From IMG/VR virus record IMGVR_UViG_2671180603_000016: DNA of 8,632 nucleotides; one strand, given 5' to 3'. Position numbers and translations under genes: made by a program. Below are positions 2,522 through 8,632 of the stretch, in pieces; within the stretch, counting starts at the first letter, position 1, and each line of letters starts with the position of its first letter. A model generated the notes under the pieces. The model ran no database searches and was not told the origin of the DNA. It saw nothing but the letters and a program-made list of their open reading frames with translations. The stretch is from a virus (taxonomy: Duplodnaviria > Heunggongvirae > Uroviricota > Caudoviricetes).

Positions 2522-2548
2522 AGCCCGCCGGTTCAGGCGGGCTTTTTT
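2522..2548 (+). terminator. Intrinsic terminator immediately upstream of stf
   Basis: 8-bp stem AGCCCGCC / GGCGGGCT, loop GGTTCA, then TTTTTT (2543-2548). The stf ATG at 2560 follows after GTGGGGTGAAT. Confidence 0.55.
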
Positions 2549-2559
2549 GTGGGGTGAAT

Positions 2560-5340
2560 ATGGCAGTAAAGATTTCAGGTGTACTGAAAGACGGCACAGG
2601 AAAACCGGTACAGAACTGCACAATCCAGCTGAAAGCAAAACGTAACAGCACCACGGTGGTGGTGAACACGCTGGCCTCAGAAAATCCGGATGAAGCCGGG
2701 CGTTACAGCATGGACGTTGAGTACGGTCAGTACAGCGTTATTCTGTTGGTGGAAGGATTCCCGCCGTCACATGCCGGGACCATCACCGTGTATGAAGATT
2801 CCCGACCCGGTACGCTGAATGATTTTCTCGGTGCCATGACGGAGGATGATGCCCGTCCGGAGGCACTGCGCCGTTTTGAGCTGATGGTGGAAGAGGTGGC
2901 GCGTAACGCGTCCGCGGTGGCACAGAACACGGCAGCCGCGAAGAAATCAGCCAGCGATGCCAGCACATCAGCCCGTGAGGCGGCAACCCATGCGACTGAT
3001 GCTGCAGATTCAGCACGTGCAGCCAGCACGTCAGCCGGACAGGCCGCTTCGTCGGCTCAGTCAGCGTCTTCCAGCGCAGGAACGGCATCAACAAAGGCCA
3101 CTGAAGCCTCAAAAAGTGCTGCCGCTGCAGAGTCCTCAAAAAGCGCGGCGGCTACCAGTGCCGGTGCGGCGAAAACGTTAGAAACGAATGCGGCAGCGTC
3201 ACAACAATCAGCAGCCACTTCTGCATCCACCGCGACCACGAAAGCGTCAGAAGCTGCCACCTCAGCCCGGGATGCGTCGGCTTCAAAAGAGGCGGCAAAA
3301 TCATCAGAAACGAACGCATCATCAAGCGCCAGTAGCGCAGCTTCCTCGGCGACGGCGGCTGCAAATTCTGCGAAGGCGGCCAAAACGTCCGAGACGAACG
3401 CCAGGTCTTCTGAAACGGCAGCGGGACAGAGTGCCTCAGCTGCGGCAGGCTCAAAAACAGCGGCTGCGTCGTCTGCCAGCGCCGCGTCAACAAGTGCCGG
3501 GCAGGCCTCAGCCAGTGCCACCGCCGCCGGAAAATCGGCAGAAAGCGCCGCATCATCCGCTTCAACAGCCACAACGAAGGCTGGCAAAGCCACTGAGCAA
3601 GCCACTGCAGCAGCGAGGTCTGCTTCTGCAGCAAAAACCTCTGAAACAAATGCAAAGACTTCAGCAGACAATGCTGCTTCCTCTAAGGCAGCAGCCGCAT
3701 CGTCAGCCAGTTCAGCGGCGTCATCGGCATCATCTGCGTCTGCTTCAAAAGATGAGGCGACCAGACAAGCGTCAGCAGCGAAAGGTAGTGCCACGACAGC
3801 AACAACGAAAGCATCAGAGGCGGCAGGCAGTGCGACGGCTGCATCTCAGAGCAAAGTTGCTGCTGAATCCGCGGCAACGCGCGCCGAGACAGCAGCAAAA
3901 CGGGCAGAGGATATTGCATCCGCCGTGGCGCTGGAGGATGCGAGCACGACGAAAAAGGGGATAGTACAGCTCAGCAGTGCGACCAACAGCACTTCCGAGT
4001 CACTGGCGGCAACGCCAAAAGCGGTTAAGGCGGTAATGGGTGAAACGAACAAGAAAGCGCCCTTAAATAGTCCTGCACTGACCGGAACGCCAACAACACC
4101 AACTGCGCGACAGGGAACGAATAATACCCAAATCGCAAGCACGGCTTTCGTTATGGCTGCGATTGCCGCCCTTGTAGATTCGTCACCTGATGCACTGAAC
4201 ACGCTGAACGAGCTGGCTGCGGCGCTGGGCAACGACCCGAATTTTGCGACCACCATGACTAACGCGCTTGCGGGTAAGCAACCGAAAGATGCCACCCTGA
4301 CGGCGCTGGCCGGACTTACTACTGCGGCAGGCAAGTTTCCGTATTTTACGGGGAATGATGTCGCCAGCCTGGCAACCCTGACAAAAGTCGGGCGGGATAT
4401 TCTTGCGAAATCGACCGTTGCTGCCGTTATCGAATACCTCGGTTTACAGGAAACGGTAAACAAGGCTGGTAACGCCGTTCAGCGTTCCGGCGATAAAATG
4501 ACCGGAGAACTGAAAATTGGCACGGTGAATGCGCTGCGAATTTTCAATGATACCTTCGGTCTAATTTTCCGTCGTTCAGAAGATTTTCTTCATTTCATTC
4601 CGACGGCTGAAGGACAAGGCGAAAACGGTAATATCGGCCCATTAAGGCCATTCGCTATAAATCTGAGAACAGGTGCTATATCTGTCAGCCACGGGGCCAA
4701 AATTAAAGGAGGTCTAGCTATTGGAGCTACTGATAACGCACTGGGTGAAAACTCCATTGTTCTGGGAGATAACGACACCGGATTTAGGCAAGATGGAGAT
4801 GGTATTATTAGCTTCTATTCAAATGGTTCGCGCATCGGACATATTGATGAGTTAGGATTACATCTTTATAAAGATATTGAATCTAATGGCAGCAATTTTA
4901 GATTAAAAAGTAATTACCGCCACCACATTACATTCGCCAACGAAGACGGAAGAATTCGTATGTTTTTGTGGAAAGATAACGGTGGTGATGGTGTTCATAT
5001 TAATAACGGTTCAGATGGTGGTGGTGATTTCATTTTTAAAACAGATGGGGGATTTGCGCTGGGAAGTGGTGCGCAAGTTGCGTCTAGTGGCGATATTTAT
5101 GGTTCAGTGTGGGAAAACAACTGGTTAAGCACATGGCTGCATAATCATGTCGTTCGGGATATTCGTCTTGGCAGCATTGAATATAAAAACGTATGGCGCG
5201 ACTACGGCTTTGGCGATGCGTCAGGTTATGTTTTAACAGCCGCAATTAACAGCAATGCGGATGATATTGTCGACACTGTTGCCAGAAGGCCAATTCAGAA
5301 ATTGATTGGGGGAATATGGTACAACGTGGGGAGTGTTTAA
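2560..5340 (+). CDS. stf: Side tail fibre protein Stf (926 aa): lambda-type N-terminal attachment domain, long Ala/Ser/Thr-rich shaft, Mu S / P2 H-like variable C-terminal domain
   Basis: ATG 2560 ([26 protein letters not shown]...) with GGGGTG SD; an in-frame GTG at 2554 is less likely. Continuous ORF to TAA 5338-5340. GC content drops and sequence style changes after the crossover site at 4427-4452. Ends [18 protein letters not shown], mirrored by the alternative cassette. Confidence 0.9.
2935..3910 (+). repeat. Low-complexity Ala/Ser/Thr-rich shaft region of stf built from degenerate short direct repeats (approximate bounds)
   Basis: Reiterated units such as AAAACGTCAGAAACGAATGC / AAAACGTCCGAGACGAACGC (KTSETNA) and [13 protein letters not shown]. 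The same region recurs in the truncated copy at about 1770-2370. Open antisense frames here follow from GCN codon bias. Confidence 0.6.
4427..4452. repeat. Left crossover site of the invertible segment (gix/pix-like, 26 bp), inside stf
   Basis: TTATCGAATACCTCGGTTTACAGGAA. Matches the reverse complement of 7343-7368 at 22/26 positions, with identical central dinucleotide. From memory, close to the Mu gix site. Confidence 0.75.
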
Positions 5341-5341
5341 G

Positions 5342-5869
5342 ATGATGCACCTGAAAAATATTAAGGCCGGGAATCCGAAAACACCGGAACAATACCAGCT
5401 AACTAAAAAAGCGGGCGTGGTATGGCTCTTTTGCGAAGATGGCAAAAACTGGTATGAGGAACAAAAGAATTTTCAGCCAGACACCATAAAAATTGCTTAC
5501 GATGAGAACAACATCATCGTTGCTGTCAGTAAAGACGTTTCAACTATTAATCCTGAAGGGCTAAGCATAGTTGAAGTTCCTGATATTACGGCAAATCGTC
5601 ACGCAGACAATAACGGAAAATGGATGTTTCTGGATGGTAAAGTAGTAAAGAGGGAATATACAGAACAGGAACTGCAACAACAGGCCGAATCACAAAAGGC
5701 CGCATTGCTTTCCGAAGCTGAATCAGTCATCCAGCCGCTGGAACGCGCTGTCAGGCTGAATATGGCAACAGACGAGGAACGCACACGACTGGAAGCATGG
5801 GAACGCTACAGTGTTCTGGTCAGCCGTGTGGATACGGCAAATCCTGAATGGCCACAAAAGCCTGAATAA
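5342..5869 (+). CDS. tfa: Tail fibre assembly protein (Tfa/U-type chaperone), partner of the expressed stf end
   Basis: ATG 5342 lies 1 nt after the stf stop, with GGGGAG SD. N-terminus [23 protein letters not shown] is paralogous to the inverted tfa' ([22 protein letters not shown]). C-terminus ...[25 protein letters not shown] is Tfa-like. Confidence 0.85.
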
Positions 5870-5897: not shown

Positions 5898-6431
5898 TCA
5901 TTCTGGTTGTTCGGGAAACGTTACTGGCAGGCTGGAGGTGTCTGTGGATTCAACCTTCTGCGCATAGAGCATCCACTCGGTTAATTTTTGTTTATTCTCA
6001 TCGGAAATGATGCCCAGCTGTAGCTGAGAGTCCCACAGCTGGGTTTTATCCCTGACGAGCTGCAGCAGGCTCTGCTTTTCATTTTCCGCTTGTTGCCTTT
6101 GCTCTTCCTCGGTATAAGTTCGCTTTATCACCGCACCATCTTTGAACATCCAGTTGCCCGAAATATCAGCCCGGCGATTTGCTGTAATATCAGGCAACTC
6201 AACGACACTTAAACCTTCTGGATTAATTGCTGATACATCCTTGTCTATAGCAATAATTATTCCCTCAACTGTGTAAGCCAGTTTTATTGTATCCTCCTGA
6301 AAGTTTTTTAATTCCTCATGCCAATTTTTTCCATCTTCGGACCATAACCAGATAACATCAAAATTCTTTGTTAGCTGGTATTGTTCAACGGTTTTTGGAT
6401 TACCTGCGACAATGTTTTTTAAATGCTGCAT
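5898..6431 (-). CDS. tfa: Tail fibre assembly protein, alternative copy (tfa', U'-type) belonging to the silent cassette
   Basis: 177-codon ORF on the minus strand. Its ATG (6429-6431) follows the stop of the alternative stf end by 2 nt. Tfa-family N- and C-terminal motifs are present. Confidence 0.85.
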
Positions 6432-6433
6432 GA

Positions 6434-7360
6434 TTATACCTGCGATACGTTATACCATGTTCCGTTAATTAACTTTTGTATTGGTCTGAATACTGCCGGA
6501 TCATCACCATCGACTTCACCGATAATACCAAGCCCCGTGATTACATGGCCTGATTTTTCATACATCACGCCTTTCTTCATGGTCTGAACAACTCGTGTGC
6601 CAAGTCTGACATCTCTCACATAGCGGGAATCAAAGTTACCGTAATCCGAGGGATTAACACGTCCCGTAATATTTATGGTTTTATTACTTTGAATGCTTCC
6701 GGAGACAAAGCGCATAACATGGACGTTATTAGCATAAACATCCAGATTACCATCGCCTTTTTGTTTAAAGCCCGTGTCATTATCACCCAATACAATCGAA
6801 TTACCGCCAAGAGCACTGGATGTTCCGATACCCAGTGCACCATTCAGTTGACCACCAGATAACGGCAGTGCACCAACATCTCCTGCTGAAGGTTTTCTGG
6901 TGGTGTAAAATTCGGACCAGTCGGCTTCAAAACCATAACCATCACGGGCTGAACGATAAAAAATACCGCCATTTTTATAATTAATCCGAAACTGAGCTGC
7001 AGGACAACTTCCTTCTCCCATATAAAAATGAATAATTAACGTTGATGCACCACTAATAGTTGCGTTATAGGCTCCGCTACTCCAGTTCCATCCAACTGCT
7101 TTATCATTCGCAACGGTGCTTCCTGTTTTCCCTAAGGCAAACGCACCAACATGACTTGCTTTTAATGTGATATCGGAGGAACCATCAAAAGCCACATTGC
7201 TTATTTTCCTGGCAGTTTTTAATTTTGCAGCTGTAGAAGCATTGCCGGATAGTTCACCAGAAAGGCCACCGCTGAATGTTTGTCGATTAGTCCAGGTATT
7301 CGCTGTACTGAGTAACGGTATTTTCTCCCCGCTTGTGCCGAGTTCTCGTAAACCGAGGTT
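6434..7360 (-). CDS. Alternative stf C-terminal variable cassette (Sv'), start-less; expressed only after inversion fuses it to the stf constant part
   Basis: Minus-strand frame is open from the crossover site (7360) to TAA at 6434-6436 with no plausible own start or SD. Predicted fusion reads ...[22 protein letters not shown]...[28 protein letters not shown].... Shares [20 protein letters not shown] and terminal [17 protein letters not shown] with the expressed stf end. Confidence 0.75.
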
Positions 7361-7368
7361 TTAGATAA
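7343..7368. repeat. Right crossover site of the invertible segment (gix/pix-like, 26 bp)
   Basis: TTCTCGTAAACCGAGGTTTTAGATAA, the inverted partner of 4427-4452. About 10 further bp of stf constant-region homology (GCCATTATC) lie on its outer side. Confidence 0.75.
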
Positions 7369-7422
7369 TGGCGGTTTCTGGCCTGCATGGCATGATTTGT
7401 GCTTTTGGACGGGAGATTCAGC

Positions 7423-7656
7423 GTGCTGATTGGCTATGTAAGGGTATCAACAAATGACCAGAATACAGACCTGCAACGAAACGCTCTTGTTTGTGCAGGA
7501 TATGAACAAATATTTGAAGATAAATTAAGCGGAACAAGGACAGGCCGACCTGGATTAAAACGTGCTTTAAAGCGCCTTCAAAAAGGTGACGCACTGGTTG
7601 TCTGAAAACTGGACTGACTGGGTCACTGTATGCGGCATCTTGTCGTGCTGGTGGTG
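7423..7656 (+). pseudogene. pin: DNA invertase (Pin/Gin/Hin serine recombinase) remnant: N-terminal catalytic region only, with premature stops
   Basis: GTG 7423 with GGGAG SD. Encodes (M)LIGYVRVSTNDQNTDLQRNALVCAGYEQIFEDKLSGTRTGRPGLKRALKRLQKGDALVV, then in-frame TGA at 7603 (Trp position in Pin/Gin) and TGA at 7615 (Arg position), then LGHCMRHLVVLVVEA. The helix-turn-helix C-terminal half is absent. Confidence 0.8.
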
Positions 7657-7749
7657 GAAGCCTAGAAAAAGTATCGGGTGTTGCTGAACCGTGTTGATAC
7701 ATCAACTGCACCTGATATTGAGTGGCCTACGAACCCTGTCAGGGAGTAA
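7657..7749 (+). pseudogene. tfa: Relic of the 3' end of a lambda-type tfa, fused to the invertase remnant
   Basis: Reads [33 protein letters not shown]-stop (TAG 7663, TAA 7747-7749). From memory, lambda Tfa ends ...[30 protein letters not shown]. Distinct from the two intact tfa copies in the window. Confidence 0.6.
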
Positions 7750-7763
7750 TCATTGGGATTATG

Positions 7764-7796
7764 CCGCAGCACGTCTTAAGCAAGAACGTGCTGCGG
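7764..7796. other. GC-rich stem-loop between the tfa relic and the 3' end of the methyltransferase gene
   Basis: 10-bp stem CCGCAGCACG / CGTGCTGCGG with a 13-nt loop. A T-run (7807-7812) lies 10 nt downstream on the + strand; no U-tract on the - strand. Possible weak or bidirectional terminator. Confidence 0.3.
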
Positions 7797-7803
7797 TTGG
7801 ATG

Positions 7804-8472
7804 CTATTTTTTCCCTGAAGCGGAAAACATTACTACAGTACCTTGAACCTTGGTTTTAACATTCTCGAAATGCTCTGAGAGTATATGTGTTAAGCCTTCT
7901 TCGGAATCTTTTGTGTTTGAAAAGATGCCTTTCTGATTGTAAATGCGCATCAGTTTTTGACCGAAGCTATTGTGCACAACTCCATCGCCAAGAATTGTGG
8001 CTCCGTATAGAGTTCCATCATCAGTTAAGGCCTGCGCCGCATTGCGTATTACACAGCTTTTTGTAGATATATTTCCAGGCAGGCAGTGAAGAAGGTAAAA
8101 CATGGAAATGGAATCAAATTGACCATGTAACGCCGCGGGATAAGGTTCAAAAACATCATGGCTAATTTTATGTTTAATTTTTGATTCCCCAGCCCTTGTA
8201 GATGCCGCGTTCAGGCTAGCTTCGTTCAAATCCATTAAAGATATCAGACTACTCTCAGGTACGTGAGTAAGGTAAAACCCAGTTCCAACACCAATATCCA
8301 GATGGTTGTTACCTAAATGTTCCAGAAAGTGTGGAAGAAGGTGTTCCTTTGTAGGACATCCCCATGCAAGCCGATTTGATACTCCCAAAACCCACCAGTC
8401 ATAAAGCTTTAGGGTAAGTGGTGTGTAAATTTTAGCCCCATCATCTGTGTTTTTTTTCATTAATTTCACCAT
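7804..8472 (-). CDS. Class I (Rossmann-fold) SAM-dependent methyltransferase, substrate unknown; likely prophage cargo
   Basis: 222-codon ORF. Motif I HLDIGVGTGFY, acidic post-I residue (ISLMDLN), motif II-like FDSISMFYLLHCLP, motif III-like LTDDGTLYGAT. No DPPY/NPPY or PCQ/ENV DNA-methyltransferase motifs. A second ATG at 8458-8460 (MKKNT...) has a better SD-like GGTGA and may be the true start. AT-rich relative to the tail genes. Confidence 0.8.
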   Translation of the reverse strand: MVKLMKKNTDDGAKIYTPLTLKLYDWWVLGVSNRLAWGCPTKEHLLPHFLEHLGNNHLDIGVGTGFYLTHVPESSLISLMDLNEASLNAASTRAGESKIKHKISHDVFEPYPAALHGQFDSISMFYLLHCLPGNISTKSCVIRNAAQALTDDGTLYGATILGDGVVHNSFGQKLMRIYNQKGIFSNTKDSEEGLTHILSEHFENVKTKVQGTVVMFSASGKK

Positions 8473-8501
8473 ATTATAGTTTTATTTGTGAATTAAATCA
8501 A
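8473..8501 (-). promoter_or_regulatory. Candidate sigma70 promoter for the methyltransferase gene
   Basis: On the minus strand: TTGATT (rc of 8496-8501), 17-nt spacer, TATAAT (rc of 8473-8478), abutting the first ATG. A start near 8466 would give a very short leader before ATG 8458-8460. Confidence 0.35.
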
Positions 8502-8528
8502 TTATGGCGATGAATTACAAGGGGTTAA

Positions 8529-8632
8529 ATGCTGCCGCAGCATAGCGATATTGAAATAGCCTGGTATGCTTCGATACAGCAGGAGCCGAATGGCTGGAAG
8601 ACCGTCACCACACAGTTCTACATCCAGGAATT
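8529..8632 (+). CDS. Hypothetical protein, 5' end only (continues beyond the window)
   Basis: ATG 8529 preceded by AAGGGG at -6 to -11. Open for 34 codons to the window edge (MLPQHSDIEIAWYASIQQEPNGWKTVTTQFYIQE). Not recognised. Divergent from the methyltransferase gene. Confidence 0.35.
   Translation, partial: MLPQHSDIEIAWYASIQQEPNGWKTVTTQFYIQE

Follow-up and report, generated by a model that had tools for sequence, protein, structure and literature searches.

What kind of DNA lies past the tail-fibre genes at the end of IMG/VR virus record IMGVR_UViG_2671180603_000016, an 8,632-nucleotide stretch from a virus of the Caudoviricetes that is here called the window in its full length? A preliminary description, made from the letters alone, had recognized beyond position 7750 a minus-strand gene for a class I S-adenosylmethionine (SAM) methyltransferase and a plus-strand open reading frame (ORF) starting at 8529 that it could not assign, and it wavered between accessory cargo of a lambdoid prophage and flanking host DNA. 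Combining comparisons with genomes, phage records and protein families, we suggest, with a probability of about 85%, that 7799-8632 comprises most of ybcY-tfaX, an accessory cassette or 'moron' carried by a lambdoid prophage in its b-region, where the tail-fibre genes lie on one side and the attachment site on the other. The cassette holds a single intact and independently promoted gene, ybcY, on the strand opposite to the late operon.

The limits of the cassette follow from a direct repeat. A repeat search and the corresponding locus of Escherichia coli EC958 (sequence type 131, ST131) identify a first copy, R1, at 7652..7798, consisting of the 3' end of the tail-fibre assembly gene tfa and the hairpin downstream of it. 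This 147-bp repeat brackets the cassette, with the second copy, R2, lying beyond the window end and 1049 bp downstream in EC958, where the two copies (12353-12499 and 13402-13549 in the coordinates of that locus) are 89-90% identical. In alignments with lambda and PhiR26, homology to lambda tfa stops at 7798, the very nucleotide at which R1 ends. After R1 the cassette opens (GGATGC...), and after R2 the EC958 DNA turns lambda-like again (AGTT.GT). Given that the end of R1 coincides with the end of lambda homology and that lambda-like DNA resumes after R2, the cassette extends from 7799 to the end of R2.

The genomic context supports the same placement. In a search with the whole window no genome in the collection covers more than 78% of it in one place, and because the strain of the window is thus without a full match, the downstream context was inferred from ST131 genomes that are 99.5% identical, as is EC958 over 7300-8632. 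In EC958 the remainder of the 8529 ORF is followed by a DUF4376 fragment, the reverse-strand genes Rha and ash (these three at 13596-14740 of the locus, between the cassette and ompW) and a truncated ompW beside trpA, so that the prophage ends about 1.6 kb beyond the window end, at the interrupted ompW; the DUF4376 fragment, Rha and ash may be part of this prophage or of a second element. Of the 5426 complete E. coli genomes, 3844 match 7800-8632 with at least 95% identity, in one to four copies each, and the 90%-identity cluster to which the methyltransferase protein belongs counts 6589 sequences and is represented by one of 222 aa. The match in the DLP12 prophage of E. coli K-12 has 98.9% DNA identity and the order tfaD'-ybcY(frameshifted)-tfaX'-appY-ompT-envY. 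The protein is also found, at full length and 99-100% identity, in 14 records of Escherichia lambdoid phages, including ev243 (100% identical), 2G7b, PhiR26_1, PhiR29, Kati and Turner. In ev243 and PhiR26_1 ybcY comes after the tail-fibre genes on the opposite strand, and next come a short Tfa-like ORF, a gene for an alpha/beta hydrolase and ompT; in ev243 the integrase gene lies after ompT, and in PhiR26_1, where the depositors labelled the gene 'YbcY', stf-tfa is intact and lies immediately upstream. The expectation of accessory genes placed downstream of the tail-fibre genes in a lambdoid prophage is therefore borne out by ev243 and PhiR26_1, and by DLP12 as well.

The gene itself occupies 7804..8472 on the minus strand, confirming the reported reversal of gene orientation, and its ORF encodes the 222 residues that had been described. 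Over residues 5-222 the protein matches PHROG 2132 (E 7.9e-157) along all of its 218 profile positions, 1-218, and the locus is nearly identical to that of K-12 ybcY, which together place it in the YbcY family; PHROGs files PHROG 2132 under unknown function. The assignment to the class I SAM methyltransferases also holds. Motif I (LDIGVGTG) stands at residues 58-65, acidic residues follow strands 2 and 3, a beta/alpha core is present, and the generic Pfam families Methyltransf_12, 23, 25 and 11 all match above their gathering scores (best E 3.8e-9). An AlphaFold2 model with a predicted local distance difference test score (pLDDT) of 84.3 has the strand/helix alternation of the Rossmann type. 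Invariant in the family alignment are YDWWVL..SN..AW.C.T, H.D.GVGTG, D.N..SL and HD.F and, further along, DS.S..YL.HCL.G, GATI.G and YN.KGIF.N..D. Compared with homologues of the Citrobacter, Salmonella, Enterobacter and Yersinia type, the ratio of nonsynonymous to synonymous substitution rates (dN/dS) is 0.10-0.19, the closest prophage-borne copies included, and on these values ybcY is under purifying selection.

The start of the protein and the control region upstream of it are conserved as a unit. ATG 8460, the codon for M5 of the ORF, is invariant in the family alignment and corresponds to the first profile position of PHROG 2132. Because this codon is conserved together with a Shine-Dalgarno (SD) sequence, GGTGA, upstream of it and coincides with the start of the profile, the protein probably has 218 aa; the true start would be ATG 8460 rather than 8472, and the start given in RefSeq and in the phage records is probably four codons too long. 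Between ybcY and the 8529 ORF lies a divergent spacer of 56 bp (8473..8528; 25% GC), recognized by a promoter scan and by its conservation. On the minus strand it has a -35 element of the sigma-70 type, TTGATT (8501-8496), a 17-nt spacing and a -10 element TATAAT (8478-8473), and the block TTGATTTAATTCAC...CTATAAC.AGGTGAAATTAATG is conserved from the window to chromosomal Enterobacter orthologues. For K-12, Shimada et al. 2014 list the ybcY promoter as TTGATT-17-TATAAC in their Table 1 (PMC3946193), and in the same study (PMC3946193) genomic SELEX (systematic evolution of ligands by exponential enrichment) showed in vitro binding of RpoD holoenzyme to the K-12 ybcY<>tfaX spacer, which is listed there as an H-NS site too. 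Given that the K-12 spacer binds both RpoD holoenzyme and H-NS in vitro, we suggest by analogy that host RNA polymerase would transcribe ybcY in the lysogen and that this expression is probably damped by H-NS.

At its 3' end ybcY converges on the tfa remnant, and between the two lies a GC-rich hairpin (7763..7797), found by RNA folding and accompanied on the plus strand by a T-run at 7807-7812. The segment 7745-7825 folds at -29.9 kcal/mol (z = -3.5), and none of 200 shuffled sequences folds equally well. Both lambda and R2 keep this hairpin, which has the appearance of the tfa terminator and may serve to end transcription of ybcY as well. In total, ybcY has the traits of a phage moron: (i) a block with promoter and SD, (ii) a 3' hairpin, (iii) insertion at the end of lambda tfa homology and (iv) a lower GC content.

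What, then, is the ORF at 8529? The window holds its first 34 codons (8529..8632, plus strand) before it is cut by the window end. The good SD that had been reported is present, AAGGGG lying four nucleotides upstream of ATG 8529-8531, which is preceded by an in-frame TAA, and the ORF can now be assigned. Its remainder, which the preliminary description had proposed to seek downstream, was found in EC958, in which the complete ORF has 89 aa; in PhiR26_1 it has 101 aa. It matches PHROG 2341 (E 4e-61), a family of 88 aa filed as unknown function. Residues 3-37 match phrog_3893, and in Citrobacter freundii an 80-aa ORF divergent from ybcY begins with a stretch that shares 76% identity with residues 1-37. 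Residues 29-87 match the C-terminal Tfa families phrog_105, 188 and 136, and residues 32-86 are 49% identical to the C-terminus of the window's own Tfa. The ORF is not a Tfa protein as such, matching these families only over its C-terminal 55 or so residues whereas a full Tfa has an N-terminal chaperone domain as well and about 175-195 aa in total. Since an N-terminal part of the phrog_3893 type is joined to a C-terminal part from Tfa, the ORF is a chimera with the arrangement of K-12 'tfaX', and as judged from these matches we regard it as a relic rather than an independent gene. The C. freundii locus (4307-4941), which carries the closest ybcY outside E. coli (90% amino acid identity), keeps the full 80-aa ORF of the phrog_3893 type, has no tfa 3' repeat on the side of this small ORF and lies near purB together with DinI and CdiI-like genes. 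This arrangement may represent the state of the cassette before the fusion.

Based on these data, we propose the following scenario for the origin of the cassette. The promoter, SD and start codon travelled with ybcY, whose ancestry would be chromosomal. A circle consisting of the cassette and a tfa 3' end would then integrate by a single crossover at the tfa 3' end of a recipient phage, and the layout of the flanking repeats is that which a single crossover of a circular cassette would give. The 8529 chimera would most likely have arisen as a side effect of the recombination by which the cassette came to its place. The YbcY protein is predicted to be cytoplasmic and to serve the lysogen in an accessory function; rather than DNA, it would methylate a small molecule or else a head group of lipid- or quinone-like type.

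Searches for relatives are compatible with such an ancestry. A word-indexed search returned 2296 homologous proteins, and an exhaustive search gave 1720 clusters (50% identity) at E <=1e-3, with 412 at E <=1e-30. Scanning one genome per species, we found homologues in Gammaproteobacteria including Enterobacter, Salmonella, Yersinia, Proteus, Pantoea, Erwinia, Pasteurellaceae, Pseudomonas and Xanthomonas. Of the orthologues sampled, those with 56-65% identity (Salmonella, Enterobacter, Yersinia) stand alone on the chromosome, in unrelated surroundings without phage genes; copies with 68-90% identity in Citrobacter and Salmonella lie among cargo of the prophage or island type (DinI, sodC, SopA-like, PerC). 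In nine individual contexts, 80 genome loci across Gammaproteobacteria and a clustering of neighbours over 73 loci, we saw synteny at the level of the genus only and no partner shared across genera. The only recurrent neighbourhood among the loci examined, confined to a single genus, is a same-strand run in about 15 Pseudomonas genomes of genes for DUF6388, the methyltransferase, an enoyl-CoA hydratase/isomerase and a CorA-like transporter. The fusion proteins, a fungal RCC1 fusion among them, give no functional hint. A protein 100% identical to that of the window is also encoded on short contigs in metagenome-assembled genomes binned as 'Bacillus sp.' and 'Planococcaceae'; these matches most likely reflect contamination or mis-binning and not host range.

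Several observations weigh against the cassette reading as set out here. The promoter scan found two promoter-like sites in 7300-8632 compared to 2.3 expected from shuffled sequence, and because this count is not above that of the shuffled sequence, the promoter claim rests on the conservation of the block and on the in vitro data from another strain, K-12. The -10 box abuts the ORF, leaving the exact transcription start and the leader ambiguous, and binding of H-NS may leave ybcY largely silent. A query for an empty site (R1+X) gave only filled sites among the matches listed, the tool having joined the two pieces of the query. In the searchable literature on ybcY, b0562 and morons with a methyltransferase we found no functional study, substrate or phenotype. 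Moreover, a K-12 ybcY mutant was without effect in one assay (PMC2408971), a result that carries little weight because ybcY is already a pseudogene in K-12.

As for the reaction that is catalysed, the HMM and structure searches that the preliminary description had called for name the family, YbcY/PHROG 2132, and leave the substrate class wide. Among sequence-based assignments Pfam gave generic families only and NCBIfam nothing near a cut-off, and phmmer and profile searches of the PDB gave only weak matches to juvenile hormone acid methyltransferase (JHAMT) and UbiG. In the fold searches many small-molecule methyltransferases matched about equally, and therefore no single substrate is favoured. 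Taken together, sequence and predicted fold indicate that YbcY is a methyltransferase of the small-molecule type and not a DNA methyltransferase.

The most ambitious alternative goes beyond the presence of the cassette and takes YbcY to be an active enzyme of lysogenic conversion that is spread by phages, gated by H-NS and present in about 70% of E. coli; we consider this version unlikely. It would have YbcY methylate a membrane lipid or quinone head group, or alter or detoxify a metabolite, with the cassette spreading via crossover at the tfa 3' end, and to these particulars we assign equally low odds. If this version were true, the physiology of the lysogen or its susceptibility to phages would be changed.

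A narrower form of this idea likens YbcY to PmtA, i.e. to a membrane-peripheral methyltransferase that converts phosphatidylethanolamine (PE), which is abundant in E. coli, to its monomethyl and dimethyl derivatives (MMPE, DMPE) and to phosphatidylcholine, or that acts on a quinone, and that would bring about lysogenic conversion of the membrane. The top Foldseek match in the PDB is indeed the PE N-methyltransferase of R. thermophilum (8ys9; E 7.5e-12, TM score 0.60-0.66), and weak sequence matches connect YbcY with PmtA, RquA and UbiG. In addition, the invariant aromatic N-terminal helix (YDWWVL..SN..AW) loosely recalls the lid of Rt-PmtA formed by Tyr10, Trp13 and Phe21 (PMC11446283). Membership of PmtA fails on the curated cut-off and on the Tyr/Ser/His triad, which in Rt-PmtA consists of Tyr10, Ser120 and His147 (PMC11446283). 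Nor does YbcY qualify as UbiG, UbiE or RquA: the RquA score is 16.9 bits against a cut-off of 175, and UbiG chains in the PDB match only at E ~1e-3 and over the SAM-binding core only. We regard this alternative as improbable.

Alternatively, ybcY could be a functionally inert hitch-hiker, silenced by H-NS, that persists only through linkage to the recombinogenic 3' end of tfa and is turning into a pseudogene as in K-12. The frameshift in K-12 ybcY, the H-NS-bound K-12 spacer, the decaying surroundings in the window (pin remnant, tfa fragments, chimeric tfaX) and the lack of a known phenotype would fit this idea. However, ybcY is intact in the window, its 90%-identity cluster has thousands of members and a representative of full length, the low dN/dS extends to the closest prophage-borne copies, and promoter and SD have been kept in different genera; we judge inert cargo to be about as improbable as a PmtA-like enzyme.

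Less credible still is an orphan DNA methyltransferase, be it an anti-restriction or epigenetic enzyme or the remnant of a restriction-modification or defence system. Orphan DNA methyltransferases are common in phages, and a single weak PADLOC match (mad2, E 0.0033, 14 bits) could be read in this direction, but that match, the sole one, is not significant, and the defence-system reading was rejected with it. As the preliminary description had noted, motifs of DNA methyltransferases are missing, with neither (D/N/S)PP(Y/F/W) nor PC present; the protein matches no DNA-methyltransferase family in Pfam or NCBIfam, and all that can be found is ENV at position 203, in a C-terminal stretch that varies within the family. 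As a single-domain protein of 218 aa it leaves no room for a target-recognition domain, and its structural neighbours are overwhelmingly small-molecule enzymes. Likewise, its report of no restriction or partner gene in the window holds, and extends to all contexts examined, none of which has a nuclease or partner gene. On motifs, target-recognition domain and partner alike, the class of DNA methyltransferases was thus discarded, and we give it very little credence.

Finally, that the segment is flanking host chromosome with the prophage ending near 7750-7800, as the shift in composition, the flip in orientation and the chromosomal location of distant methyltransferase homologues in other genera might suggest, is the least credible of all and is refuted by the identical gene inside lambdoid phage records, the phage-derived DNA that in EC958 continues to the truncated ompW, the tfa 3' repeats on both sides and the presence of ybcY-tfaX in different prophages, several per genome, instead of at one conserved chromosomal locus.

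Returning to the ybcY-tfaX cassette, its left neighbours document how the junction may have formed. A pin-type serine invertase remnant (7399..7655, plus strand; Pfam Resolvase N-terminal domain, E 4.6e-15) has decayed, with a single frame throughout that contains internal stops (VV*KLD*LG) and is joined in frame to a tfa 3' fragment. The latter (7654..7749, plus strand), identified by translation and DNA alignments, comprises the last 31 codons of tfa with the stop at 7747-7749; PhiR26_1 Tfa ends in the same residues as its translation, and it is a tail-fibre assembly remnant rather than a gene. The fusion of pin remnant and tfa 3' end points to a deletion through which the decayed switch became attached to the tfa 3' repeat. 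RefSeq gives the name 'hypothetical protein', or 'nucleocapsid protein' where the genome derives from K-12, to a 45-aa ORF at 7722-7859 on the plus strand that overlaps the tfa remnant, the hairpin and the 3' end of ybcY; this ORF seems to be an annotation artefact.

The composition of the DNA, described before as markedly AT-rich past the switch, needs qualification. The methyltransferase ORF has 40.7% GC (35% at third codon positions) compared to 49.6% for the whole window, and the description thus fits this gene and the spacer; it does not fit 7606-7803 (50.5% GC) or the start of the 8529 ORF (50%). The preceding 3 kb, consisting of the stf C-terminus, tfa and the invertible segment, have 42.5-45% GC. 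Because the neighbouring DNA is already at 42.5-45% or at about 50% GC, only the methyltransferase gene and the spacer with its promoter are AT-rich, and their difference from the adjacent DNA is modest.

As a whole, the window represents the right-hand end of the late region in a lambdoid prophage. It opens with the end of J and continues with lom (646-1245), a partly duplicated stf, the full stf (2554-5340), tfa (5306-5869) and an inverted tfa'/stf' segment (5898-7195). The 3' end of lom is partly duplicated in tandem (1040-1122 and 2373-2455, 96% identical), as is the 5' part of stf (1380-2232 and 2543-3419, 85-91% identical). The ORF at 1397-2461 is a truncated stf copy with lom-derived residues at its end, after which the full stf restarts at 2554.

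Neither ybcY nor tfaX is new: both have been annotated since the K-12 genome, are catalogued as PHROG 2132 and 2341 and occur in most E. coli. The practical value of the analysis lies in the correction of the annotation, i.e. the prophage boundary is not at 7750, the methyltransferase start is probably four codons too long and the 'unknown' ORF is a chimeric relic. Beyond this, the gene, intact and under purifying selection, is carried by lambdoid phages and by about 70% of those E. coli genomes that are complete.

The modular design of this cassette is paralleled in several known systems. The closest is DLP12 of K-12, in which tfaD, ybcY (b0562) and tfaX have the same order of tfa 3' end, opposite-strand ybcY, 56-bp spacer and tfaX and the same divergent promoter, TTGATT-17-TATAA(T/C). 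The two differ in that K-12 ybcY is frameshifted and K-12 tfaX has an internal stop whereas ybcY is intact in the window, in the upstream neighbour (a pin::tfa fusion remnant in the window and tfaD' in K-12) and in the site of the prophage, which is ompW/trpA in the genomes closest to the window and the DLP12 site in K-12. The Escherichia lambdoid phages ev243 and PhiR26_1 share the position after tfa, the opposite orientation and the short Tfa-like ORF that comes next; they differ by their intact stf-tfa upstream, by the hydrolase-ompT(-int) cargo downstream and by the short ORF itself, which has 101 aa and a C-terminal end other than that of the window type. With regard to enzymes, YbcY has only 11-21% identity to UbiE, UbiG, PmtA and JHAMT, far under all curated family cut-offs, and its invariant motifs YDWWVL, HDVF, YLLHCLPG and YN.KGIFSN differ from those of every characterized enzyme examined. 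With regard to cargo, the morons of the lambda type (lom and bor, sodCI of Gifsy, ompT) are likewise small units with their own promoter and a lower GC content in the slot between the late genes and the attachment site, and such genes are also the companions of ybcY, with lom in the window, ompT in the phages and sodC together with a SopA-like gene in C. braakii. In contrast to the classical morons, whose products have known roles as virulence factors, either secreted or in the envelope, ybcY encodes an enzyme of the cytoplasmic type.

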